From positions 1 to 64,000 of IMG/VR virus record IMGVR_UViG_3300036900_000025: a stretch of DNA of 64,000 nucleotides, one strand, 5' to 3'. The notes beneath the pieces are model-generated. The model was not told the origin of the DNA. It saw only the letters and a program-made list of their open reading frames with translations, and ran no database searches. Positions 28,983 to 50,984 of this stretch are shown here, in pieces (position 1 is the stretch's first letter; every line of letters starts with the position of its first letter). The translations under genes were made by a program, and so were the position numbers. The stretch is from a virus.

Positions 28983-28999
28983 TTTCACCCGCAGTACCC

Positions 29000-29042
29000 C
29001 GGCGTGGCTCCAGCTGTTCTTAACGCAGCTGGAGCCGCGCCG
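29000..29042 (+). terminator. hairpin after the tail tube gene
   Basis: GGCTCCAGCTG...CAGCTGGAGCC inverted repeat. Confidence 0.7.
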
Positions 29043-29085
29043 TACAACCTCAAGTTCACCATCGACCACGAGAGGGTCACAGAAC

Positions 29086-29640: not shown

Positions 29641-29897
29641 ACGCCTACGTCAAGGGTGACTCTGTCGAGAACGCTCGCACGATCTTCCGCATCTTCACGT
29701 TCTGCGAGAACACTCGATGGTCATGCTTGCCGGTTGCCGGAGGGTACTACGACCAGCACCCTGAGTTCATTCGTCAATGCAACCTGATCTTCGAGGCGCG
29801 TGGCAAGAAGCAGCGCGAAGAGGAGAAGCGTCGCCAACACGAGATGGGCAGAAGCGCTAAGCCGGGGTCACGAGTCGCTGGTCGCAGGGGTCGCTAA
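29613..29897 (+). CDS. tail assembly chaperone -1 frameshift extension (gpGT-like)
   Basis: -1 frame open from the slippery site to TAA at 29895-29897; contains LPVAGGYYDQHP. Confidence 0.85.
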   Translation, partial: GGRQLLRQVDAYVKGDSVENARTIFRIFTFCENTRWSCLPVAGGYYDQHPEFIRQCNLIFEARGKKQREEEKRRQHEMGRSAKPGSRVAGRRGR

Positions 29898-30020
29898 CTA
29901 CGGTGTCGGGGTCCATGCTTGCGGGCGTGGACCCCGATGCTGTATGGTCTGTACTCGTCGGGCACTAGAGGCCCATCATGGACTCTAAAGTCTGACTAGG
30001 GGCGCGAACTGAACGCCTAC

Positions 30021-33000
30021 ATGAACATTCAGGTCCGGGTGCTGAGCGCCCAGGCCCAGACCCAGATCAAGGCTCTCGAAGCCGAGCTGGCGCGTCTTCG
30101 CACGGAACTTGCAGCCACCAACACTGCCTCCAATGCTGCCAACGCTGCTACCGCTAGAAGCGTTGGTGGACTCAAGAAGTGGGGCAGTCAGCTCCAGTGG
30201 GCAGGTCGGCAGCTTCAGTACAACTTCACGATACCTATTCTCCTGGCAGCAGGAGCAGCAACAAAGTTCTACATGGACAACCAGAAGGCCCTGGTTGGAC
30301 TGAAGAAGGTCTATGGCGACCTGGGCATGTCGCAGAGGACCATCAACAACGAGGTCAAGGCACTCTCGAAGGCCTTCGAGGCTCTTTCTGCGCAGTACGG
30401 TGTCCAGCAGAAGCAGGTCATCGAGATCGGCGCAGCGTGGGCACAGGCCGGCGTTAGCGGTGTAGCCCTCGCTAAGAGTACAGAGCTCACGCTCAAGACG
30501 ATGGTACTCGGCGAGATGGACTCGACGAAGGCCACTCAGGCTCTCATCGCTATCCAGGCGCAGTACCGTCTCAGCACGTCAGAACTCACCGATGTCATCG
30601 GTCAGCTGAACATCATCGAGAACCAGACCGGTGTGTCACTGGCCGACCTGGTGGACGGCTTCTCCCGGACAGCCGGCGTTGCGCGTGCCGCTGGAGTCAC
30701 GGTCAAGGAACTCGGCGCGATGATGGCTGCTTTGGTACCAGCTGCTGGTACTGCTGCCCAAGCCGGTAACGCGCTCAAGACGATCTTCTCTCGCCTGCTC
30801 TCGCCGACCGCTGAAGCCGCAGATGTCCTGAAGGAAATGGGCATCAACCTCACGGACACCAGCTGGAAGAGCGCTACGGCAACGCAGCGCCTCGAGATCA
30901 TGGCAAAGCAGTTCAGCAAGCTGGAAGGCCCCCAGCGTGCCGTAGTCTCCGCCCTTGTCGCATCTCGCTTCCAGCTCAACAAGTTCGAGATCCTCATGGA
31001 CTCGATGAACTCGAAGTTCGAGACGTACTACGACAAGGCCAACAAGGCCGTCGAGCAGACCGACTACATGCGGGTAGCACAGAAGGAGCTTAACCAGGTC
31101 CTTCAGAGCGACCCGAAGCGACTTGAGCGTACCTGGGTCATGTTGCAGAACGCTATGGCTGACATCATCATCCCGATGATTCCAGCTATCTTGGGTCTGG
31201 CTAACATGATCCAGCGACTGGCACAGGCCTTCTCGGACCTCGATCCGACGATCCAGATGTTCATTATGAGTGCGCTTCTTGCACTCGCAGCTGTTGGTCC
31301 GCTAGCAAGGATGATCGGCGCAACGTCTCTGCTCTTCGGTGAGATGAGTAGCGCGATCAAGTGGGTCGGAGCGAACCTCAAGCTGCTGGTCGGCTGGATC
31401 GCAGAGACAGGGCTGGCGATCGGTCGCTTCCTCATCGGTCCGTGGGGACTGGCGATTGCTGCGGCCGTTGCGCTGATCGTTGTGTTCCGCAGGCAGATCG
31501 AGCAGGCATTCACCAATCTTGTCAACTGGTTCCAGCACTCGGGTTCGGCCTGGGTGGCGGTGTTCAAGCCGGTTGTGGACTTCTTCGGTGCAGCCGTCGA
31601 TTACATCGAGAAGGCCTTCAACTCGCTCCCCAACGCAGTTCAGAACGCCCTCATGGCGGTTGTTACCATCGTTGCTACAGCAGCGAAGCAGGTCTACGAG
31701 TGGCTGTCCTACCTCAACCCATTCGCTCGGCATTCGCCTTCCGTGGTAGACAACGTACGCGCTGGCATGGCGGTCATTCGTAACGAGTTCTCTAGCATCG
31801 CGTCCATCCACGGGCCGATCGACAAGGCCTACAAGGACATCAAGAGGTTCAGCCAGGCGACCGCTGCCTTCCGTGGCGGAATGGACACTGCACAGCGGGC
31901 ACAGGATCGCAAGACTGTAGCCAAGGTTGACCCTGGTGCGCTCCATGCGTTCGATGCGCTCGTCGCTGACCTCAAGCAGCTGACTGCCATGATGAATACC
32001 TACGAGGCTGCTGTTAAGCGTCAGGAGACAGTGGTTCAGGGGTGGAAGGACAAGCTCGACGCTGCCAACGCCGAACTGGACAAGCAGCAGAAGAAGCTTG
32101 ACGATCTCCAGGCGAAGCTTGACAAGTGGCAGAAGAAGCTTGATGATTCGCAGACGGCGCTAGCGAACTGGTCGCAGACTCCCATCACCGGCATGAAGGC
32201 TATGTCGGATGCGATCTTCTCGAACGAGCAGGCACAGAAGAAGCTTCGCCTCGAGATGATGAACATGGAGGACGCTGTAGGTCCGATTGACGACTTGCGG
32301 GCCCGTTACGCGGCACTCCAGGGCGACATCGAGAACCTCAAGGGCGAGCAGGCAAACCTGCGTTCGGCTGGTGCAGGTAGCGATATCCTCGCCACCTACG
32401 ACCAGCAGATCGCTGGTCTGCAGGCGCAGCAACAGGCAACCCAGGACGCCACGAAGCCGATCGACGACCTCCAGAAGCAGCTGGATGCACTGCAGCGCGA
32501 GGGCGAGCGGCTCGACCTCACGAATAGCCTGCAGTTCGATCCACTGACGCGCCAGATCGAGGCAGCCTCCAACGCGATGCAGGAGATGCCTTTCGATGTC
32601 ATCATGGCCGGGATCCAGCAGGCTCAGACCGACATCGGCAAGTACCAGGACAAGGTTGACGCGGCAACGAAGGCGGTCAACGACCAGACTGTCGCTGTCA
32701 ACAACGCTCAGGCGGCGCGTGACAAGGTATCTGCTAACCTTGACCGCGAGCAGAAGCAACTTGACGGCCTCCAGCAGAAGTACCAAGATGTCAAGAGCGC
32801 GGTCGATGACGTAACAACTGCGCTCAACGACATGGTCAGTGCTAGCAACGACAGTATTCGTGCAGCGAAGGCCAAGGCTTCCGCAAAGGGTAGCGTTAGC
32901 CCAGGTCTGCAGAACTTCCGTGACGCTGCCGGTGGCAAGTTCGCTGATGTCGGTGGTTCCGGTGGCTTGGGTCGCGAGGGTTCACAGGCTGACCAGTCGA

Positions 33001-35501
33001 AACTGATTGATCAGTTCACAGAGGACCTTCGCAAGCGCACTGGTCAGATGTTCGGCAACGTGGACTTCACTGGACCGTTCCGGCGTGCCTGGAAGAACGT
33101 CACTGACTGGTGGACCGCAAACATCACGCCTGCTCTCAGTGCGCTAGGTGGCGAGGTCGAGCAGGCTTGGGGCAAGATCAGCTTCGATGGTCCGTTGGCT
33201 AAGATCACAGCCTTCGGTCATGCCTTCTGGGACCTGTTCGGTGGCGACATTATGAAGGTCGTCAACGTTCTCAGTGACAACCTGCACAAGGCTATCGTCA
33301 CCATCGGGCCAGAGCTTGAAGCGTTCAAGGGCCTCATCAAGCCGCTTGGTGATCTCTTTGTCATGCTGTGGAACGGGATCAAGCCGGTAGCCGAGATCCT
33401 TGGGCTGGCGCTCCTGGCAAACCTCAAGCTCGTTGCCGACGTGTTCGCCAACACGCTGGGTCCGGTTCTTGACACCGCGATTGACCTGATCGCAGATGTG
33501 CTCAAGGCCTTCCGTGGAGTGATCGAGTTCGTCGTCGGTGTGATGACAGGAGACTGGGCACTTGCTTGGAAGGGCATCCAGGATACCTTCATGGGTACCT
33601 GGGAAGGTATCTACCACATCCTCGAAGGTGCCGTTTCGATCGTCGTAGGCTTCATCAAGGGCATCGTGGAGGGTGTGGTCGGCTGGTTCAAGTGGCTCTA
33701 CGACACCCTGATCGGCCACTCGATCATTCCAGATATCATCAACGGAATCTTCGACTGGTTCCACAAGCTTGCTGATCTTCCCGGCTGGATCTACGACCAC
33801 ACCTTGAAGCCGATCTTCGAAGGCATGAGGGACTGGTGGACAAACACCCTCAAGCCTAAGGTCGATGACATCAGCAGTGGCATCATCGGCTTCTTCCACA
33901 AGCTCGGCGATCTGCCGCAGTGGCTCTGGGACAACACCTGGAATGCCCTGTGGACCAAGTTGTCGAACTTCTGGGACAACACGCTTCTGCCTGGCGTTCA
34001 GGGCATCAAGCAGGGTATCGTTGATCAGTTCCACGCGCTGGGCAACCTGCCGGAGTGGCTGTACAACAACTCCTTCCTGCCGATCTGGACCAAGCTGAAG
34101 GATGTGTGGGACAACTACCTCGTCCCGCTGGGGAACAGGATCCTTCGTGGATTCGGAAACATCTTCAACGGCGTAGGCGAGGCTGTTGCAGCAGGCGTCA
34201 ATATCGCAATCGGAGCGATCAACAAGCTGATCGACGGCCTTGACTGGATCGGATCCCACGTTCCTGGCCTCAGCTTCAAGGTGTCCAACATCGGCACCTA
34301 CAGCTTCGAGAAGTGGAGCCCGCCGCAGTACGCGAAGGGTGGCATCCTCCCCACTGCTGTCGGTGGCGGCTTTATGACCAATGGTGCTCGGGCCATTGTG
34401 GGCGAAGGTGGACCTCACCCAGAGTTCGTCATCCCGACCGATCCACGGCACCGCAAGAACGCGACCGACCTCCTCGGCAAGGCTGCCGAGAAGCTTGGCG
34501 TGGGAGGGATCGGGGACGTGTGGGATAGCATGAAGACTGCAGGGAGCAAGGCTACTTCGTTCCTTCGCGAGAATGCAGTCAATGCGATCTTCGCTCCGAT
34601 CAACGCGGCGGTCAACGCACTGTTGACTCAGGTACCAAGCGAGCTTGGTCTTCGTGCCTTCGCCAAGTACGGTGTCCAGCAGATCCAGGACTTCGCATCC
34701 GGTGTGAACGACCACCTCGTTACCAGTGGACCGTGGGGCAAGCCGGTTGCGCTGGCGCTGGGACTTCCGTTCGGTAACACGTACTCGGACGGCAGCTTCC
34801 ACTCTGGCCAGGACTTCCCCGGTCCCATCGGTACGGCGATCAAGGCCGCGAGCGCTGGTATAGTCAAGGCTTCCTACGACATTCACGGAACCAGTCCGTA
34901 CAACAACTTCCCGTACGCTTCCTACGGTCGTCTCGTCCAGATCAACCACGGTGACGGAATCGAGACGCTCTACGCTCACCTCAGCGAGCGGCTCGTGGAG
35001 GCTGGCGACAAGATCAAGACTGGTGACCTCATCGGTCGTCTTGGTGAGATGGGTAACGCGACCGGGCCTCACCTGCACTTTGAGGTTCGTCGCAACGGTG
35101 ACCCGATCAACCCGATCCCGTTCCTGGCTGACAAGGGAGTTCGGTACGACGGAGGCGGCTGGCTACCCCACGGTGGCGTAGGAGTCAACACTTCTGGGAT
35201 GCCAGAGCCCGTATTCTCTAACCAGCAGTGGAGCACGATCGACCGCGCAACCCGTGTCTCTATGGCTATGGCGACCACGCTGCCGAACACCATAAAGGAC
35301 GCTGTGAACGTAGCGGTAGACCGGGCCGTGACGGCAGCGGTGCAGCGTGCTACGGTCGTGTCGGGCGCGAACGGGACCACGGCGAGCACTCAGGCCGGTG
35401 GAGTCACCATCAACATCTACGGAAACCTGGAGATGCCGAACATCACCGACGGAACTGACGCAGAGCAGTTCCTGAAGAACCTCGAGAGTCTGGCGGGCTA
35501 A
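30021..35501 (+). CDS. tape measure protein with a C-terminal M23 peptidase domain
   Basis: 1826 aa; TP901-like core (AGNALKTIFSRL), coiled coil, Trp-periodic repeats, HSGQDF...YAHL...TGPHLHFEVR. Confidence 0.95.
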   Translation: MNIQVRVLSAQAQTQIKALEAELARLRTELAATNTASNAANAATARSVGGLKKWGSQLQWAGRQLQYNFTIPILLAAGAATKFYMDNQKALVGLKKVYGDLGMSQRTINNEVKALSKAFEALSAQYGVQQKQVIEIGAAWAQAGVSGVALAKSTELTLKTMVLGEMDSTKATQALIAIQAQYRLSTSELTDVIGQLNIIENQTGVSLADLVDGFSRTAGVARAAGVTVKELGAMMAALVPAAGTAAQAGNALKTIFSRLLSPTAEAADVLKEMGINLTDTSWKSATATQRLEIMAKQFSKLEGPQRAVVSALVASRFQLNKFEILMDSMNSKFETYYDKANKAVEQTDYMRVAQKELNQVLQSDPKRLERTWVMLQNAMADIIIPMIPAILGLANMIQRLAQAFSDLDPTIQMFIMSALLALAAVGPLARMIGATSLLFGEMSSAIKWVGANLKLLVGWIAETGLAIGRFLIGPWGLAIAAAVALIVVFRRQIEQAFTNLVNWFQHSGSAWVAVFKPVVDFFGAAVDYIEKAFNSLPNAVQNALMAVVTIVATAAKQVYEWLSYLNPFARHSPSVVDNVRAGMAVIRNEFSSIASIHGPIDKAYKDIKRFSQATAAFRGGMDTAQRAQDRKTVAKVDPGALHAFDALVADLKQLTAMMNTYEAAVKRQETVVQGWKDKLDAANAELDKQQKKLDDLQAKLDKWQKKLDDSQTALANWSQTPITGMKAMSDAIFSNEQAQKKLRLEMMNMEDAVGPIDDLRARYAALQGDIENLKGEQANLRSAGAGSDILATYDQQIAGLQAQQQATQDATKPIDDLQKQLDALQREGERLDLTNSLQFDPLTRQIEAASNAMQEMPFDVIMAGIQQAQTDIGKYQDKVDAATKAVNDQTVAVNNAQAARDKVSANLDREQKQLDGLQQKYQDVKSAVDDVTTALNDMVSASNDSIRAAKAKASAKGSVSPGLQNFRDAAGGKFADVGGSGGLGREGSQADQSKLIDQFTEDLRKRTGQMFGNVDFTGPFRRAWKNVTDWWTANITPALSALGGEVEQAWGKISFDGPLAKITAFGHAFWDLFGGDIMKVVNVLSDNLHKAIVTIGPELEAFKGLIKPLGDLFVMLWNGIKPVAEILGLALLANLKLVADVFANTLGPVLDTAIDLIADVLKAFRGVIEFVVGVMTGDWALAWKGIQDTFMGTWEGIYHILEGAVSIVVGFIKGIVEGVVGWFKWLYDTLIGHSIIPDIINGIFDWFHKLADLPGWIYDHTLKPIFEGMRDWWTNTLKPKVDDISSGIIGFFHKLGDLPQWLWDNTWNALWTKLSNFWDNTLLPGVQGIKQGIVDQFHALGNLPEWLYNNSFLPIWTKLKDVWDNYLVPLGNRILRGFGNIFNGVGEAVAAGVNIAIGAINKLIDGLDWIGSHVPGLSFKVSNIGTYSFEKWSPPQYAKGGILPTAVGGGFMTNGARAIVGEGGPHPEFVIPTDPRHRKNATDLLGKAAEKLGVGGIGDVWDSMKTAGSKATSFLRENAVNAIFAPINAAVNALLTQVPSELGLRAFAKYGVQQIQDFASGVNDHLVTSGPWGKPVALALGLPFGNTYSDGSFHSGQDFPGPIGTAIKAASAGIVKASYDIHGTSPYNNFPYASYGRLVQINHGDGIETLYAHLSERLVEAGDKIKTGDLIGRLGEMGNATGPHLHFEVRRNGDPINPIPFLADKGVRYDGGGWLPHGGVGVNTSGMPEPVFSNQQWSTIDRATRVSMAMATTLPNTIKDAVNVAVDRAVTAAVQRATVVSGANGTTASTQAGGVTINIYGNLEMPNITDGTDAEQFLKNLESLAG

Positions 35502-43745: not shown

Positions 43746-44935
43746 TCCTCGTCAATCGCGGACTTCGCCTCGATCGCAACCTTTGGTTCGCCTGTCTTGT
43801 AGAAGATCATCGCCTCCACCTGCTTGCGCTGCTCAGGTGTGAGGCGTTGGTCTTTCTTTAGCTTGTCGAGCTGAGCCATAGTGATCGACACGCCGCCGTA
43901 CTGCAGGAAGATCTGCGGGCCGACGATGGACTCGATGCGCTCGGGGTCAGCTTGGCGGCGACGCGAGGACTTGAAGTAGAGCCGATGCGTGTCGGACTCG
44001 ATCTCGATTAGCTCGCGTTCACGGAGGTCAGTCTCGATCAGCTTGTCCAGCTCTTCGATCGCAGAGTTGATCGCAGACTGCTGGTAGGTCAGGATTGCGC
44101 GTAGGTCGATAGCGTCTTCGGCCTTCTCGATGCCGAAGGTTCCACCTACCGCGATGTTCTTTTGCAGCGCTCCGCAGTTGGCTTTGCGGACGCAAAAGCG
44201 GCACTCGGCGTTCAGCCGCTCCTCGGATTCGCCCTCTTTCGTAGCCAAGATATCCTCGGCCTTGCGGAGGATGAAGTTCCAAGTTGCGGTGATCTCTGCA
44301 CGGGTAAACACGATACCGCTGTCAGTGTGGCGCAGCATGTCGAAGACGACCCAGATCGTGTCGTACTCGATGCCCTGCGCCTTGAGCTGGATCGCCGCCG
44401 CTAGTGCATAGATTCGCGCCTGTATCTTCTTGGGCAGATCCTGCGGGCGAACGTCCCAGCGAGACGTCTTGTAGTCAACGACCCGGAACTCCTTCTCGCC
44501 GATCTGGTCAAAGCGGTCCCAGATGTAGTTGAGGGGGATCGGACCCGCCGTGGTCGGGACATCGAAGTGATCCTTGACCTCGCATGAGATCACCTTGATC
44601 GGGTAGCCGTATCGCTCCCAGATCGTGCGGTTGTACCAGTTGGTCAGCATCTCGATGCCGTCGTGGTAGTCAGGCGTATCGAGATCCGCTGTGCCGAACG
44701 TCGTCATGTACGACATGCGGAAGTAGACGAGAAGGTTCTCCAGAGTGTATGGCTCGGGATTCTCGCTGAGCTTCGTGGCTTTGACGAACAGCTCAAGCGC
44801 AGAGTGACACGACGTTCCGAGGCTTGCTGCGGTCCCACCTTCTCCGCGACCTCTATTGATCTGTTCTGCTTCGTACCTCGCCATGCACAGTTCTGCAACG
44901 TGCAAAGCGGTCGCAGAGAATGACTTAGGAATCAT
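43742..44935 (-). CDS. Cas4/RecB-like PD-(D/E)XK exonuclease
   Basis: N-terminal Cys, GTSCHSALE, WDRFD, VVDYKT, QARIY, CRFC...C. Confidence 0.9.
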   Translation of the reverse strand: MIPKSFSATALHVAELCMARYEAEQINRGRGEGGTAASLGTSCHSALELFVKATKLSENPEPYTLENLLVYFRMSYMTTFGTADLDTPDYHDGIEMLTNWYNRTIWERYGYPIKVISCEVKDHFDVPTTAGPIPLNYIWDRFDQIGEKEFRVVDYKTSRWDVRPQDLPKKIQARIYALAAAIQLKAQGIEYDTIWVVFDMLRHTDSGIVFTRAEITATWNFILRKAEDILATKEGESEERLNAECRFCVRKANCGALQKNIAVGGTFGIEKAEDAIDLRAILTYQQSAINSAIEELDKLIETDLRERELIEIESDTHRLYFKSSRRRQADPERIESIVGPQIFLQYGGVSITMAQLDKLKKDQRLTPEQRKQVEAMIFYKTGEPKVAIEAKSAIDED

Positions 44936-45134
44936 TGTCTATCTCATCCTGTCGGGTGATGAGTCGGCCAGCCCACACACCGTGAGTGGAGCTGGATCTG
45001 TCACGGAACTCGTCACACTGAGCCCGTACGCCACAGCCAAGGCAAACCATCTTGGCTTCGTTAGCCAGAGACGCCTGGCCACGCGGAGGGAAGAACATCT
45101 CGGGGTCTTTGTCTCGACACGCTGCCTGCCCCAA
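44925..45134 (-). CDS. whiB: WhiB family transcription factor
   Basis: AACRDKDPEMFFP, AKMVCLGCGVRAQC, GVWAG. Confidence 0.95.
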   Translation of the reverse strand: MGQAACRDKDPEMFFPPRGQASLANEAKMVCLGCGVRAQCDEFRDRSSSTHGVWAGRLITRQDEIDNDS

Positions 45135-45184
45135 CCAGACCTTGTCGTTCGGGTCGAGCTTAAAGAGGCTAAGCAGCTCCCGAA

Positions 45185-45631
45185 CTACGCTTTTGGGTCG
45201 TCAGCGTCCTCGTCAGAAGCAACACCCAGCTCCTGCGCGTCACGAAGAGCATCCTGACGAGCCAGCTCCTCCGGACTGAGCTCTTGCTTCGCGTCGTAGA
45301 CGACAGGGCGGAAGTCTGCGCCCTGAGAGAATGGAGTGAAATTCTTGTCTAACGACACAACCTCGATCGGAACAGCAGAGTCCTGTTCCGGCGTCGTAGG
45401 GTCCTCGCTGAACACCGGCCCCATGTCGGACTCGCCGGTCTGCTTGACCACCTCGACCTTGACTGCCTGAGGGGTCTGCTTCGGGTCGGGCTGAGAGAAC
45501 ACGTCCACGGCCTGCGATCCGTCAGGCGGCGGCGGCGGGGCGAAAGGGTCTACAGGCTCCATGTCCCCTGCAGCGGGTGAACTTGGCATCAGTGCTAGCC
45601 TCCGTGGTGGTGTCGGGCGCGGTGCTGGCAT
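45185..45631 (-). CDS. Pro/acidic low-complexity protein
   Basis: ORF heading the WhiB/Cas4 unit. Confidence 0.65.
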   Translation of the reverse strand: MPAPRPTPPRRLALMPSSPAAGDMEPVDPFAPPPPPDGSQAVDVFSQPDPKQTPQAVKVEVVKQTGESDMGPVFSEDPTTPEQDSAVPIEVVSLDKNFTPFSQGADFRPVVYDAKQELSPEELARQDALRDAQELGVASDEDADDPKA

Positions 45632-45687: not shown

Positions 45688-46083
45688 GTGCAGCCAGCCG
45701 TACAGGACATCACCGTTCGGCAAGGTGACCGATTCGACCTCTTCGTGCGTCTGCGCCAGAAGGTCTGGAATCCAGCGCTCAACGGTGGTGCGGGCGACTG
45801 GGAACCAGGCCCCTACGTTGACCTCACCGGCAAGACCGTTCGCAGCCAGGTCCGCAACACTGCCGACGACACGACGGTCCGAGCAACCTTCACTCCGACC
45901 ATCAGTGATCAGGTCACTCTCAAGGGTGGCTGCCTCCTTACACTCTTTCCGGTGGACACCAGGGCCCTCATCGTCAACGCAGTCTACGACGTGGAGGTCG
46001 AGACGACTGCGACTCCAACCGACACCGAGACGTTCCTCGAGGGGGCGATCACACTCAAGAAGGAGATCACCCGCGTACCGTGA
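45688..46083 (+). CDS. beta-sandwich virion attachment protein (BppU-N/LtfC-like)
   Basis: ITVRQGD.F, VDLTG, QVR, YDVEV, LEG...EITR pattern; AGGAG SD. Confidence 0.65.
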   Translation: MQPAVQDITVRQGDRFDLFVRLRQKVWNPALNGGAGDWEPGPYVDLTGKTVRSQVRNTADDTTVRATFTPTISDQVTLKGGCLLTLFPVDTRALIVNAVYDVEVETTATPTDTETFLEGAITLKKEITRVP

Positions 46084-46325
46084 GTTACTTCGTAGAGGTC
46101 ACTCTTGACCCGGACGTCTCAGCAACCGAGGTGCCGGACAACTCGGTTGACTACTACCTCGAAGTCTCGTACGGGAATCAGACCGAACTTCTCACCGGCA
46201 TCGAAGATGTGCCCTTCGGGGTCGAAGTCAGCTTGCCAGCCTTGCCGAGAACAGACTACGCGATCATCGCGGCAGGAAGTCCGTTACCAACTGACCCGAC
46301 CATCATGGTCGTGTACGAGTACTGA
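46080..46325 (+). CDS. small acidic protein
   Basis: GTGA overlap. Confidence 0.7.
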   Translation: MSYFVEVTLDPDVSATEVPDNSVDYYLEVSYGNQTELLTGIEDVPFGVEVSLPALPRTDYAIIAAGSPLPTDPTIMVVYEY

Positions 46326-46333
46326 GGAGAGAC

Positions 46334-46684
46334 ATGGCTGACGAAGCCACCACTCCGGCCCTGAAGAGGGGCTGTGAGCTGTGCGGAGGGGTCGATGACC
46401 ACCCTCGTACACTGCACTACCTCGCACCAGGCGATGACCGCGGAGTCATGCCCGACGATGTCCTGAACAAGCTCATCGAGAACGGCATCTCTGGCGAGAT
46501 GCTCAAGGAGCTGCAGGACCCGGCGACGTTCTTTGTCCACATCGACTGCTGCGCGCAGTCGGGTCGCTGCCCGATCCCCGACGGCCCCTTCAGTCGGTCC
46601 TGCAACACGGAGTTGAGTCGCGCCAAGGTGAACGGCGAGACGGGCGACGCGATGCGCAAGAAGCTGCAGGCGGTGAGCAACTGA
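46334..46684 (+). CDS. Cys/His-rich Zn-binding protein
   Basis: CELCGGVDDHPR..H and HIDCC...C...C. Confidence 0.8.
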   Translation: MADEATTPALKRGCELCGGVDDHPRTLHYLAPGDDRGVMPDDVLNKLIENGISGEMLKELQDPATFFVHIDCCAQSGRCPIPDGPFSRSCNTELSRAKVNGETGDAMRKKLQAVSN

Positions 46685-47100
46685 TGGGCGCACTCGTCGC
46701 AGTACACGGCCAGGGCCTCCTCGACGCCAGCACTGACCAGTCCGGAGCTGCCGTCCGTGTGACCACCGGCCCGCTCAAGCTTCGCCAGATGACGGCCAAC
46801 GGGTCCAACACCGCTGCAGGTACCGAGGTCGCCACGGGTGGCGGCTACACCTCGGGCGTCGGTGCTCCCACCGTCACCTTCGCCGCTGCGTCGGGTACCG
46901 CACCCGTCCAGACGACGAACTCCGGTGCTGTCACGATCTCCAACTATCCACGCGCAGAGACTGTTGTGGGCATCGAGGTCTGGGACAGCGCCGGTACCCC
47001 TCTCCGCAAGTGGTGGGGTGCGCTGACTGCCTCCAAGACGATGGCAGCTGGCGACACGCTCTCCTACGCGATCGGTGCGATTGCTCTCCAGCTTCCCTGA
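46684..47100 (+). CDS. small fibre-type structural protein
   Basis: GTEV.GGGY, VTFAAAS, TNS, IEVWD, GALTASKT.AAGDT pattern seen in small phage fibre proteins; strong codon bias. Confidence 0.7.
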   Translation: MGALVAVHGQGLLDASTDQSGAAVRVTTGPLKLRQMTANGSNTAAGTEVATGGGYTSGVGAPTVTFAAASGTAPVQTTNSGAVTISNYPRAETVVGIEVWDSAGTPLRKWWGALTASKTMAAGDTLSYAIGAIALQLP

Positions 47101-47113
47101 GAGCACTCAAGAC

Positions 47114-47151
47114 CAGCCGGGGTCCTCGTGGGCATCGCAGGACCCCGGCTG
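47114..47151 (+). terminator. hairpin between the small fibre gene and the long repeat gene
   Basis: CAGCCGGGGTCCT...AGGACCCCGGCTG 13-bp perfect inverted repeat. Confidence 0.75.
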
Positions 47152-47174
47152 ACCGACGTTTAGGGAGGTGAGTA

Positions 47175-50100
47175 GTGGCAGCGTCGTTCGTCAGGGATCA
47201 TGGTGCAGCGAGCATCAAGACTGCTGGCGCAGCGAATATCAACGTTGTCACTGGCGCAACAGCTCCCGATGTTGGGAACGTTCTCGTAGCCCGCATCCTC
47301 TTCGACAACTTCTCAACTGCCAGTCAGCCTGTCGTTTCTTCGATTGCCAAGCCAGCCGGAGAGATGAACAACTGGGTCTTTCTTGGCGCCGCCCGTTCTA
47401 CTTCAACTTCAGCCGGATCGTTCGCATCAGGTGAGTTGTGGGCGATCCAGACGAGTGTTGCTTGGCCTGCTAGCACTTCGTACCTCGTAACTCTGAACAA
47501 CTCAGTCACGATGAAGGCCACAAGCCTCCGTGAGTTCACAAACGTTCTTCCGGTACTTCGCAACACAGTCGGTACGGCGTACAGCACGACCACCACCGCT
47601 GCCTCCGCAACGACCACCGGCACGACGCCAGTAGTTGGTGACTTGGCGCTGGGATTCCTATTCGGATCGAACGTTGCTTCGGCACAAGCCGGTGATACTG
47701 ACACCACAGGTGGCTCTTGGAGCGCAGCTGACGGTGTTGGTTCGACTGGTGGTAATGCCGCCACAAACAACTTCGGCATCGGTCAGTACAAGGTCTTGAC
47801 AGCTGCTTCTCAGCAGACGTATAACTCGTCTGCCGCAGGGTCGGCAGGTAACGGCGCTATCGTTGCAATCTTGCAAGGTGTTGCGCCGCCAACTGCCCCC
47901 GTCACTGCTCCAACCGTTGTACTGCCGACAGCTGGTAGTCAAGAGCGCATTCTCATCACGACACCGCCGACTCTGGAAGGTGGTGCAGCTTCATACAGCG
48001 TCTATCGCAACGGCACGCTTGTTCAGAGTTCGGTTGCGAACGCAACGCAGATCAATGACTTCAACGCATCTGAGACATCCTCCCAGACGTACACAGTTCG
48101 TGGAGTCAACACTGCTGGTACGAGCACTGACAGTCCGGCATCCTCCAGTATCGTTGCTAACCCGGACCCACCATCAGTTACACTGACGCCGGGTGACACT
48201 ACGGTTGACATCTCGGTCTTCCAGCGAACGTATAACGCGCAGTACAAGATTTACCGGCGCAAGACACCTGTTGCTCCGTGGGTCGGTACCATCGTGCTAG
48301 GCAACGTTGCAGGTGCTACTGCTCTATCCGCAGCGGTTGACATCTCCGGTGCAACGACAGGTGAGGTTGTATTCGTCGGAGGTCTGCTCGAAGATACGTT
48401 GACTGCGCCAGTCACGTTGCCTAGCGGATGGACACTTGCGTCCGAAGGCTCGGAAGGTGTCACTGCTGGTGCAGGTTCACACTCGTTCCTAGCTTGGCGC
48501 GTCAAGCAGGCCGGTGATACAACCTTCACGTTCTCGTGGGGTGTTGCGGGCAAGTATCAACTGATTCCGTTCTCGTACCCCGGCGTTGACACAACGACGC
48601 CTGTAGACGTTGCCGCCTACAACGCCTCTACCACTGCGGCTTCGGCTGACTCGGCATCCATCACGCCTTCTACTCCGAACAGTTGGATTATCGGTCTGTT
48701 CGGCAAGCGCGGTACGACAGCCGCTATGGCGATCACCCCTGCGACCGGGATGACCGAGAGGGGGGAAGCAGATACTAGTGCGTCTCGCTTCCTCTCGCTG
48801 GAGTTGGCTGACACCAACGGACAGGTAACCCAGGCAGCACACTCATACAGCGCGACCGTTACTGGCTCCACTGCCTCACACGGTGGAACGATCGTCGCCG
48901 CGTTGAACTTTGCCTGGACACTCATCAACACCTCTTCGACACTTACTGCCGGGACGGGCAACTACGTCTACACCGACACGGCCCTCACCAACAGTACCAG
49001 TTACGACTACTCCGTAACGACGAACCCGCAGACCCCGACGGTACGAGAGTCTGTCAAGGCCATAGCCCAGCCGGCCGTTCCGGTCAGCCCGCCAGTCACC
49101 CTCGTTCCGACTGCTGATATCTCGCACTCAACGAACGCGGCTCCTGCTAGTGGTACTGCTTTCTGGAGTCTGCTCGACGACGATCCGGCCTCTTCCACGA
49201 ATGATGCAGGAACCGACTACGTCTCGATGGTCGGGTTCAGTGCAGAGAATTTCGTCGTCCAGATTGGCGACGGTGGTTCTGGCGCACCACTTGCTGTTAC
49301 CATCAACCTCAGGACGAAGGGAACTGTAACTCCAGCTATCACTGTTGCGATCCTGAACTCCAGTGGTACAACACTTACGTCGAAACTGCTTACACCAGGA
49401 ACCATCTCTCCAACTCTGAACTCTTGGACACTGAACTCAACAGAGTTGGCGACGATCCCCACCCTTAACGGCTTGCGCCTGAAGATGTCGGGAAACCCTG
49501 GTGGCGAGGAATACGATGTTCTCGCTGTCAACATGGTGGCTTCTCCGGGGGCCAGTGGGCCTGCAACCCTCTCCGGTGCCGCGACACTGACCAACAGCTC
49601 GACCATCAGCGCTGGTGGTACGTTCCAGCAAGAAGCTGGTACTGCACTTAGTCAGACAAGTACGCTGTCGGCCGGTGGTGTACGTCAGCAGCCAGCCGCC
49701 ATTACGCTGACTCAGGCCAGCACGGTCAACGCTACCGGGTTGCCGCTCAAGCCCGGTGCCGCTACACTCACGCAGACCAGCACGCTGGCTGGGGTCGGGG
49801 ATCGCACCGCCGCGCCCTCTGTAACGCTCACGCAGACCTCCACCATCGCCGGTGCAGCTGTACCGATCAGGTTGGGCGCAGCGACGCTGACTAACAGCAG
49901 TACTGTCAACGCTGCAGCATTCGAGACGAACCTTGTCTCGGTAACGCTGACGCAGACCAGCACAATGTCTGCAGTTGGTGGCACGATTCAGACTGCCGCT
50001 GTCACACTCAGTCAGACCAGTACAATGTCTGCATTCGGTGGCGGGTTGACTGTCGGCGCGGCTACCCTGACGAACAGTTCGATCCTGGCTGGAGCTGGTG

Positions 50101-50984
50101 ACCGTACCGCAGCACCGACTACCGCCCTCACTCAGACTAGCGTTCTCTCGAGTGTTGCACTTAGTACAGGGCTCGGGGCAGCTGTACTGACGCAGACAAG
50201 TACTCTCTCGAGCCAGCTCGTGCGAATCGCTATCGGCGCTATCACGCTGACTCAGACTAGCACAGTCAACTCGGCTGGCATCGAGATCAACCTCGCAGCG
50301 ATCACGCTGACGAACAACTCGACTATCAATGCGCTGGCTTCTGGCTTCGGTACACAGTCGGGCGCAGCGATGCTGACGAACAGTAGCACAATCAGTTCGG
50401 CACCAGTGATGACCGCCATTACGAGCGTCACACTGACAAACAGTAGCACAGTCACAGTTGGAGCTGCTCGTACAGTACTGCCTGCCATCGTACTGACTAA
50501 CGACAGCGTTGCGGTCATCGGCGGATTGCGGACGGTACCAGCAACAGGCACTCTCGTCCAGACGAACACGCTCGTCGTGGGCGGGATCAGGATTGCCACT
50601 GTCGCGGCCACGTTGACGAACAGCAGTATGGTCGTTGTAGGAGCCAGTAGGACGGTTCTTCCGACAGCGACGCTGACGCAGACATCTGTGCTGACTGGTG
50701 TGCCCGTGGTGACCCGTCTAGGCGGGATCACGCTCGTGCAGCCGTCCGTGGCATCCCTCGGAGCGTTGGCGCAGCGGGTCGCCGCCGCAGTCTTGATCCA
50801 ATCTAGTACGATGTCCGCCGAAGGACTAAAGATTGGGTCGTGGCCCATATCTGTACGCGGTTCCGACGGCGACTTGCACCTAATCCAGGACGTGCATGTA
50901 CGCCGACCGGATGGTGCGCTGGTGGTACCAGTACGGATTTGGGTACGTCAGCGGCCTAGCTGGGATTGGGTCAGCCTGGGATAG
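47175..50984 (+). CDS. large Thr/Ala/Ser-rich fibre/adhesin protein with ~21 C-terminal 20-aa repeats
   Basis: N-terminal beta-sandwich/FN3-like domains; repeat xAxTLT(Q/N)(T/S)ST(L/V/I)xA. Confidence 0.8.
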   Translation: MAASFVRDHGAASIKTAGAANINVVTGATAPDVGNVLVARILFDNFSTASQPVVSSIAKPAGEMNNWVFLGAARSTSTSAGSFASGELWAIQTSVAWPASTSYLVTLNNSVTMKATSLREFTNVLPVLRNTVGTAYSTTTTAASATTTGTTPVVGDLALGFLFGSNVASAQAGDTDTTGGSWSAADGVGSTGGNAATNNFGIGQYKVLTAASQQTYNSSAAGSAGNGAIVAILQGVAPPTAPVTAPTVVLPTAGSQERILITTPPTLEGGAASYSVYRNGTLVQSSVANATQINDFNASETSSQTYTVRGVNTAGTSTDSPASSSIVANPDPPSVTLTPGDTTVDISVFQRTYNAQYKIYRRKTPVAPWVGTIVLGNVAGATALSAAVDISGATTGEVVFVGGLLEDTLTAPVTLPSGWTLASEGSEGVTAGAGSHSFLAWRVKQAGDTTFTFSWGVAGKYQLIPFSYPGVDTTTPVDVAAYNASTTAASADSASITPSTPNSWIIGLFGKRGTTAAMAITPATGMTERGEADTSASRFLSLELADTNGQVTQAAHSYSATVTGSTASHGGTIVAALNFAWTLINTSSTLTAGTGNYVYTDTALTNSTSYDYSVTTNPQTPTVRESVKAIAQPAVPVSPPVTLVPTADISHSTNAAPASGTAFWSLLDDDPASSTNDAGTDYVSMVGFSAENFVVQIGDGGSGAPLAVTINLRTKGTVTPAITVAILNSSGTTLTSKLLTPGTISPTLNSWTLNSTELATIPTLNGLRLKMSGNPGGEEYDVLAVNMVASPGASGPATLSGAATLTNSSTISAGGTFQQEAGTALSQTSTLSAGGVRQQPAAITLTQASTVNATGLPLKPGAATLTQTSTLAGVGDRTAAPSVTLTQTSTIAGAAVPIRLGAATLTNSSTVNAAAFETNLVSVTLTQTSTMSAVGGTIQTAAVTLSQTSTMSAFGGGLTVGAATLTNSSILAGAGDRTAAPTTALTQTSVLSSVALSTGLGAAVLTQTSTLSSQLVRIAIGAITLTQTSTVNSAGIEINLAAITLTNNSTINALASGFGTQSGAAMLTNSSTISSAPVMTAITSVTLTNSSTVTVGAARTVLPAIVLTNDSVAVIGGLRTVPATGTLVQTNTLVVGGIRIATVAATLTNSSMVVVGASRTVLPTATLTQTSVLTGVPVVTRLGGITLVQPSVASLGALAQRVAAAVLIQSSTMSAEGLKIGSWPISVRGSDGDLHLIQDVHVRRPDGALVVPVRIWVRQRPSWDWVSLG

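Follow-up and report, generated by a model that had tools for sequence, protein, structure and literature searches.

A detached siphophage operon with a gp80-type bead gene and a 21-repeat protein as a candidate module for a chain-like virion fibre

What does a siphophage build with an operon that lies apart from its structural genes and places a small protein gene directly before that of a very long repeat protein? This question is raised by the stretch of DNA analysed here, positions 1 to 64,000 of IMGVR_UViG_3300036900_000025 (an IMG/VR record of 78,954 bp, complete according to CheckV), hereafter termed the window. Five plus-strand open reading frames (ORFs) with good starts, g1 to g5, occupy positions 45688–50984; the ORF and start calls confirm the coordinates and sizes of the five co-oriented genes listed in an earlier note on this DNA. 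The operon probably encodes a "beads-on-a-string" (chain-like) virion fibre, in which the repeats of g5 would donate strands to copies of the g4 protein. The evidence comes from the bead-type protein g4, the repeat array of g5, the association of the two gene types across phages, and a hairpin between the two genes.

The fourth gene, g4 (46684–47100, + strand), encodes a protein of 138 amino acids (aa) that matches the Pfam family PF23140 ("Podophage GP4 fiber I protein gp80") with 30.8 bits against a cut-off of 27 (E = 4e-7). A profile of 122 g4 homologues matches 8jou_a, the gp80 chain of phage GP4 in PDB 8JOU, over its full length (E = 2.3e-8). The AlphaFold2 (AF2) model of g4, with a predicted local distance difference test score (pLDDT) of 94.3, comprises a helix at residues 6–17, followed by seven strands forming a beta-sandwich. 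In a Foldseek search with this model, 8jou_a was the best match, with template modelling (TM) scores of 0.73/0.74, and ranks 2–6 were occupied by the whiskers of phages Bas63 (9MT4) and Sf14 (9C39). The Pfam match, the family profile and the predicted fold (TM 0.73) together identify g4 as homologous to gp80 of GP4, which forms the bead in chain-like fibres. The GP4 fiber I structure deposited as 8JOU was reportedly described by Zheng et al. in J Mol Biol in 2023. The g4 family is represented by 282 cluster representatives in a phmmer search of the whole library, mostly of 125–145 aa, and two of its proteins (P0051 and P0180) contain the bead twice in tandem, as would suit a dimeric unit. With g4 and g5 as tblastn queries, none of 50,697 cultured phage records was matched at E 1e-5, and at E 1 only two Methylophilales phages were recovered. 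A weak match of g4 to the type-1 fimbrial subunit 6erj (E = 0.04) falls short of significance, and we claim no homology from it.

The fifth gene, g5 (47175–50984, + strand; GTG start after AGGGAGG), encodes a protein of 1269 aa whose C-terminal region carries the proposed rope. Residues 802–1225 (49578–50849, + strand) consist of 21 units with a period of 20 residues, one unit having 22, which bears out the count of about 21 tandem 20-aa repeats in the earlier note. The autocorrelation of the array is 0.35 at a spacing of 20 and 0.31 at 40. The consensus of the unit reads A-A-T-L-T-Q/N-T/S-S-T-h-S-A-x-G-x-R-x-x-L-x, in which L4 is invariant, Q/N6 occurs in all 21 units and S8 in 20 of them. 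Tandem Repeats Finder detected no repeat in g5 at the DNA level; the repeat is therefore one of the protein. Sequence searches of the PDB with the repeat region, the repeat profile and the g5 family profile returned nothing significant. The only weak matches of the repeat profile (E around 1) are to antibody lambda light chains, at their N-terminal strand A (xLTQPSSVSAxPG), which lies at the edge of an immunoglobulin (Ig) sandwich; we record them as a curiosity and not as evidence. The array is followed by a small C-terminal module (residues 1226–1269; 50850–50984 including the stop codon, + strand), and this short tail is similar to those of protein P0031 and of the repeat proteins of two related loci (L006 and L008).

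The association between the bead and the repeat was seen directly, and from both sides. Six IMG/VR loci contain close g4 homologues. Five of them extend downstream of the bead gene, and in each of these five a protein with repeats of the g5 motif and a period of 20/40 residues is encoded within the next two genes. These repeat proteins differ widely in size: 833 aa with 19 repeats and a g5-like N-terminal module in L006, 526 aa in L007, 753 aa with 15 repeats in L008, 277 aa with approximately three repeats in L009, and 1577 aa in L010, where 43 repeats are counted by the hidden Markov model (HMM) and approximately 56 by span. No other ORF in the bead-seeded loci has a comparable periodicity. 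The gene of the L010 repeat protein (L010:5802-10535) lies two genes 3' of the bead gene and immediately behind those of the scaffold and the capsid; under the rope model, its approximately 56 repeats would correspond to a very long fibre. A search for related loci with the g5 repeat region as the query found nothing.

For the opposite direction, we used a DNA pattern of five Ser/Thr-Thr-hydrophobic triplets at 60-nt spacing, a query that holds no information on the bead. This pattern also drew many unrelated period-20 repeats (collagen-like, leucine-rich-repeat-like and Pro/Thr-rich). Among the arrays that carry the rope motif and have enough flanking DNA, a Gp80-like gene lies directly upstream in nine out of nine (L069, L072, L088, L095, L101, L104, L123, L129 and L146). 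Three of these loci (L088, L129 and L069) belong to SU10/GP4-like podophages, in which the major capsid protein (MCP), the adaptor and Gp80 are followed by a protein of 220–295 aa with 7–10 perfectly phased repeats; their Gp80 genes match the Pfam family with E-values of 1e-49 to 1e-52. A DNA pattern for TLTQTSTL yielded only isolated chance matches (38), none of them a rope or a bead. A cultured example is the Methylophilales phage MEP401, where the bead-like gp60 is followed by gp59, annotated as "tail protein", whose ten 20-aa units align with the g5 units free of gaps. Searched from both sides, the repeat family of g5 follows a bead gene at 15 or more loci. The podophage ropes (MEP401, L069, L088 and L129) end in short Trp repeats of the E-T-W-T-x-I-S-D type with a period of approximately 10–11. 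Furthermore, MEP401 gp58 (encoded with gp59 at L012:3671-4794) has the C-terminal motif of gp59 without the rope, and this motif may be a common docking tail.

Chain-like fibres of GP4, A1002 and Bas63 have been solved by cryo-EM (PMC13730344, PMC12609058). As outlined there, five dimers of gp80 are strung on the GP4 rope, which has a gene of its own, and the fibre docks to the fibre-tail adaptor gp77 (PMC13730344, PMC12609058). The 8JOU entry contains ten gp80 chains and gp77; gp79 and gp78 of GP4 are absent by sequence from 8JOU and from the PDB. In the GP4 genome, gp80 is followed by gp79 (325 aa; GenBank "virion-associated phage protein"; L004:8948-9925; MH638294 57947-58924), and residues ~20–240 of gp79 form approximately 11 units of 20 aa with a divergent motif. 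The rope HMM fails to recognise gp79 or Bas63 gp4; gp79 is linked to the repeat family by period and position, and Bas63 gp4 by the published structure. By inference, gp79 would be the fiber I rope, with about one bead monomer to each repeat. The GP4 system shares with the operon in the window a bead that is homologous to g4 by profile and predicted fold, a bead gene directly followed by that of a protein with a period of approximately 20 aa, and, as proposed for g5, many beads per rope. In contrast, GP4 is a podophage of a Gram-negative host (Ralstonia), while the window belongs to a siphophage of a probable actinobacterium. The GP4 rope candidate is a small stand-alone protein of approximately 11 units, whereas the 21 units here form the C-terminal third of a 1269-aa protein, and GP4 lacks a Cys/His gene of the g3 type. 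GP4 gp76 carries a Peptidase_S74 chaperone domain, which is typical of trimeric fibres.

In the Pseudomonas podophage A1002, dimers of gp40/gp41 are bound to gp39, a nozzle-rope protein, at its fiber-dock domain (PMC13730344). Similar to the proposed rope of g5, this rope forms part of a larger protein with several domains; its 11 dimers come close to the number expected for g5, and it is interrupted by a globular, Ig-like insert in gp39, comparable to the interrupted arrays of L006, L008 and P0030. The A1002 beads bind by beta-sheet augmentation, the mode proposed here for g4. However, the A1002 rope protein constitutes half of the tail nozzle and has its anchor C-terminal to the rope, its two bead paralogues contrast with the single bead gene in the window, and no 20-aa sequence repeat is reported for it (PMC13730344). 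KPP21 (LC064302), considered as a relative of A1002, was rejected as an N4-like phage. In the Escherichia myophage Bas63, the whisker dimers have incomplete sandwiches; the collar's N-terminal rope, along which they are arranged "like beads on a string", completes them (PMC12609058). The collar is gp4, as identified by Cys52, Cys69 and Cys90. The whiskers of Bas63 and Sf14 (PDB 9MT4 and 9C39) are structurally related to g4, the rope and bead genes of Bas63 (gp4 and gp5) are adjacent, and the location of the Bas63 module in the head gene block, between the portal and protease genes (PMC12609058), resembles that of the L006 module. The differences are a rope of only about 48 residues that holds two dimers and lies N-terminal to an Ig-like collar, smaller beads (110 aa), and the absence of a repeat motif detectable by the rope HMM. 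The anchor is C-terminal to the rope in the solved ropes with an assigned sequence; the candidate anchor module of g5 is N-terminal. Chaperone-usher pili offer a parallel in working principle only: an incomplete Ig-like sandwich is likewise completed by a strand of another chain, but each pilus subunit donates its own N-terminal strand, whereas here a single rope chain would supply all of them.

These comparisons allow a specific proposal. The g4 protein, with its N-terminal helix and beta-sandwich, would be the bead and would dimerise, and the C-terminal array of 21 × 20 aa in g5 would be the rope, an extended chain that threads the beads. The core of each repeat (A-A-T-L-T-Q-T-S-T-L-S-A) would add one strand to the sandwich of one bead, one g5 chain would carry approximately 21 beads (approximately ten dimers), and the number of repeats would set both the length and the valency of the fibre. 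An allotment of two repeats per dimer is favoured by the GP4 fibre, with ten beads against approximately 11 units, by the 7–10 units of the podophage ropes, and by a period-40 super-repeat in several arrays (autocorrelation of 0.51 in L006 and 0.53 in L010). Two repeats per dimer would correspond to approximately 21 beads on g5, close to the 20:1 ratio in the earlier note. That note had proposed strand donation by each repeat, with the length given by the repeat number. The proposal agrees with the published architecture, the homology of g4 and the two-way synteny, although the repeats modelled alone form a solenoid. The comparison with a tape measure made in that note proved wrong: the rope would itself belong to the finished fibre, and the tape-measure position is taken by the ORF at 30021–35501. 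The adhesin-type tip envisaged there is likewise doubtful, as residues 1–240 of g5 look more like a virion anchor. As a candidate tape measure protein, g5 itself was rejected: its model is all-beta, its gene lies outside the tail block, and the ORF at 30021–35501 holds that position.

Several observations weigh against a beaded rope in g5, and the foremost of them support a different structure, in which the 21 repeats would fold on themselves into a right-handed beta-solenoid of 21 coils (approximately 100 Å) that serves as the shaft of a fibre or adhesin, with g4 as a separate tip, collar or decoration. AF2 modelling of g5, conducted on residues 1–1200 as a single chain with a shallow alignment of 36 rows, places one coil per repeat at residues 830–1160 with a pLDDT of 70–90. 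VIA-align matches residues 818–1180 to right-handed beta-helices with Z scores from 24.6 to 13, headed by the Vag8 passenger (24.6) and the Pam1 tailspike (23.6) and including TibA, Ag43, the curli protein CsgA and CBA120 TSP3; a Foldseek search with the 1200-residue model returned noise only. The hydrophobic positions 2, 4, 10, 12, 15, 17 and 19, which run through the entire unit in an inward/outward alternation, and the Gly and Gln/Asn residues at the predicted turns are solenoid-like, and beta-helices are common in phage fibres. Besides the solenoid, a Pfam search of g1–g5 found no match to PF23148 (Gp77), the family of the gp77-type adaptor, and the identity of the GP4 rope depends on the inference drawn above for gp79. 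The ropes with an assigned sequence are also denser than one bead per repeat would imply: the Bas63 rope uses approximately 48 residues for four monomers (approximately 12 aa each), and the A1002 rope approximately 24–30 residues per dimer (PMC13730344). A single bead for each 20-aa repeat is thus the favoured ratio but not the only candidate: each repeat could alternatively hold one dimer.

The solenoid nevertheless appears unlikely to us. Single-chain predictors readily stack beta-prone tandem repeats, and self-similarity inflates their confidence. Some arrays contain only 2–3 repeats (L009), and others are split by globular domains of 200 aa (L006, L008 and P0030); no stable solenoid is expected from either, and such short and interrupted arrays fit better with docking sites. 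In addition, the repeat family always adjoins a bead gene, in both search directions. In GP4-like podophages the repeat protein adjoins gp80, and cryo-EM reveals a rope at this place and not a solenoid rod (PMC13730344). The earlier note had held that repeats folding alone as a solenoid and binding no subunit would speak against its scheme; a solenoid is indeed what AF2 predicts, while the model neither shows nor excludes bead binding. Regarding the gp77-type adaptor, the anchors vary among the solved fibres (collar and nozzle), and such an adaptor may not be a defining feature of this fibre type; g1 or residues 1–240 of g5 may take its role.

A second explanation regards g4 and g5 as unrelated neighbours, with g4 as a head decoration or "head protein", g5 as a conventional receptor-binding fibre, and the repeats as a spacer. 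It draws on the match of g4 to phrog_240 ("head protein", E = 3e-4), on the location of the module within the head gene block in L006 and L010, and on the occurrence of the g5 N-terminal module without beads or repeats in L001 and many other proteins. However, the PHROG label is weak, and the known bead fibres attach at the head or neck. Chance neighbourhood is insufficient to account for bead and repeat genes that adjoin each other at 15 or more loci from very different phages, and we consider this explanation very improbable.

A beaded fibre on a single rope would consume far more bead than rope protein, and the g4–g5 junction shows a feature compatible with such an imbalance. The gap of 74 nt between the two genes holds a hairpin (47114–47151, + strand) with a 13-bp G+C stem. 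The 83 nt around it have a folding energy of -40 kcal/mol (z = -3.8), which none of 200 shuffled sequences reached. The strong hairpin reported in the earlier note is thus confirmed; per 50 nt it reaches -32.7, one of the ten strongest values in the window, where the mean is -12.9 and the standard deviation 4.3. Comparable hairpins lie 3' of the bead gene in L010 and L006. No T-run accompanies the hairpin at 47114–47151. The codon adaptation index (CAI), calculated relative to the MCP and major-tail-type protein genes, is 0.64 for g4, 0.83 for the MCP gene and 0.40 for g5; the "capsid-level codon bias" previously ascribed to g4 is therefore overstated, its index being high but below that of the MCP gene. 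The hairpin is probably a partial terminator or an RNA-stabilising element that would yield more bead than rope, and together with the codon index it fits an excess of bead. In the proposed scheme, the hairpin after g4 and the better codon usage of g4 would supply this excess. The two strongest hairpins of the window, both at -39 kcal/mol per 50 nt, are located elsewhere, at 28996–29045, just after the gene of the major-tail-type protein, and at 29896–29945, just before the 1826-aa tape-measure ORF. The layout of an abundant subunit, a hairpin and a long low-copy protein is the same at this site as at g4/g5.

How the fibre might be held on the virion is suggested by the first 240 residues of g5 (47175–47894, + strand), a beta-sandwich module common to many phage proteins and modelled by AF2 with a pLDDT of approximately 92. 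It shares 55–73% identity with the N-termini of 28 proteins of 760–2100 aa with differing C-termini; some of them carry GH16 (glucanase) domains, and none of them carries the repeats. The module (the P0002–P0028 family) has no match in Pfam, PHROG or the PDB. In L001, a module of this type sits in the tail-fibre region. Since a shared N-terminus with swapped C-termini is the usual signature of virion attachment, residues 1–240 probably represent a candidate attachment (anchor) module, which would fix the fibre to the virion, with further beta domains in the N-terminal 800 residues. The middle region (residues 241–801; 47895–49577, + strand) comprises domains of FN3-like and beta-sandwich type and is poorly modelled, with a pLDDT mostly below 50. 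Segments of this region are common to P0002, P0029, P0031 and P0033, and residues 271–317 show a weak match to the Pfam RGI_lyase beta-sheet family.

The three genes upstream of the bead gene encode small proteins. The first, g1 (45688–46083, + strand; 131 aa; GTG start after AGGAG), belongs to phrog_1084 (function not assigned; E = 2.6e-13). This is its only family match, with no match in Pfam or, by sequence, in the PDB, so that the attachment-type beta sandwich seen in it by the earlier note is at most putative. A phrog_1084 member is also located upstream of the bead gene in L006, and g1, as the first gene of the operon, may be an adaptor. The g2 protein (46080–46325, + strand; 81 aa) is very acidic, with 14 Asp and Glu residues against a single Lys or Arg and an isoelectric point of 4.05; it has no family match in Pfam or PHROG, and no relatives were found. 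The g3 protein (46334–46684, + strand; 116 aa) contains six Cys and three His residues and the motif CxxCG-x-DDHP[KR] ... HxDC; the Zn binding ascribed to it in the earlier note is putative. Homologues of g3 lie directly upstream of the bead genes in L005, L007 and L010, and in four proteins (P0139, P0143, P0157 and P0162) a Cys/His domain like that of g3 is naturally fused to a Gp80-like bead domain. Because it adjoins bead genes and is fused to Gp80-like domains elsewhere, g3 is, judged by its gene context, a conserved functional partner of the bead. It could be a bead assembly factor or a structural add-on.

The placement of the operon was also described correctly in the earlier note. A morphogenesis block of the siphophage type extends from 16746 to 41096 and encodes TerS, TerL, the portal, a protease, the MCP, a major-tail-type protein, an ORF of 1826 aa (30021–35501) in the tape-measure position, and three tail proteins. 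The block ends more than 4 kb upstream of g1, and the operon is thus detached from it. Leftward genes border the operon on both sides, as that note had claimed: upstream, those of a PD-(D/E)XK exonuclease, a WhiB protein and a 148-aa protein, and downstream, a MazG-like gene that converges on the end of g5. The WhiB ORF (69 aa, TTG start) follows directly after the 148-aa acidic or Pro-rich ORF on the - strand (44925–45631 for the pair). Within the operon, the g1/g2 and g3/g4 junctions overlap (GTGA and TGATG, respectively). The G+C content of the window is approximately 0.6, and this composition, together with the WhiB gene, makes an actinobacterial host likely. When genome contigs were scanned with g4, the sole match was partial, in a metagenome-assembled genome of Thermoleophilia. 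Among the relatives, L006 has the module between the terminase and portal genes, in L010 it directly follows the capsid gene, and in the podophages it comes after the adaptor gene. These positions point to the head-neck region, whereas in the window the module is detached among early genes.

The beads-on-a-rope architecture is already known from work of 2023–2026, and strand donation is a published principle. To our knowledge, structures of beaded fibres exist for no more than a few phages, all of which infect Gram-negative bacteria, and most of the rope genes lack an annotation. New here are the occurrence of the module in a siphophage of a probable actinobacterial host, the location of a 21-unit rope behind approximately 800 residues of other domains, and the g3 partner. 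Also new is that the ropes form a recognisable family of 20-aa repeats that spans very different phages. Whether the 20-aa unit (h-T-L-T-x-T/S-S/G-T-h-S-A-x-G...) is a universal bead-docking code, from GP4/SU10-like and Zobellviridae podophages to actinobacterial siphophages, we judge to be evenly balanced. If it is, the number of beads and the length of the fibre would be readable from the sequence over a range of approximately 2 to approximately 56 repeats, and the unassigned rope density of GP4 would be gp79. The actinophage rope would then have become attached to large enzyme- or lectin-bearing proteins, with a Cys/His partner (g3) as a further gain, which would give a modular, length-programmable, multivalent adhesin, new among the structures of Gram-positive phages. 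These findings suggest that the rope can be recognised by sequence, as a 20-aa repeat family beside a Gp80-like gene, and that the module extends to siphophages of Actinobacteria, with repeat numbers from approximately 2 to more than 50. They yield a simple rule, open to testing, from which fibre length and bead valency could be predicted, as well as a means to annotate many "hypothetical" phage proteins, and the fibre may find engineering use as a length-programmable scaffold for multivalent display.

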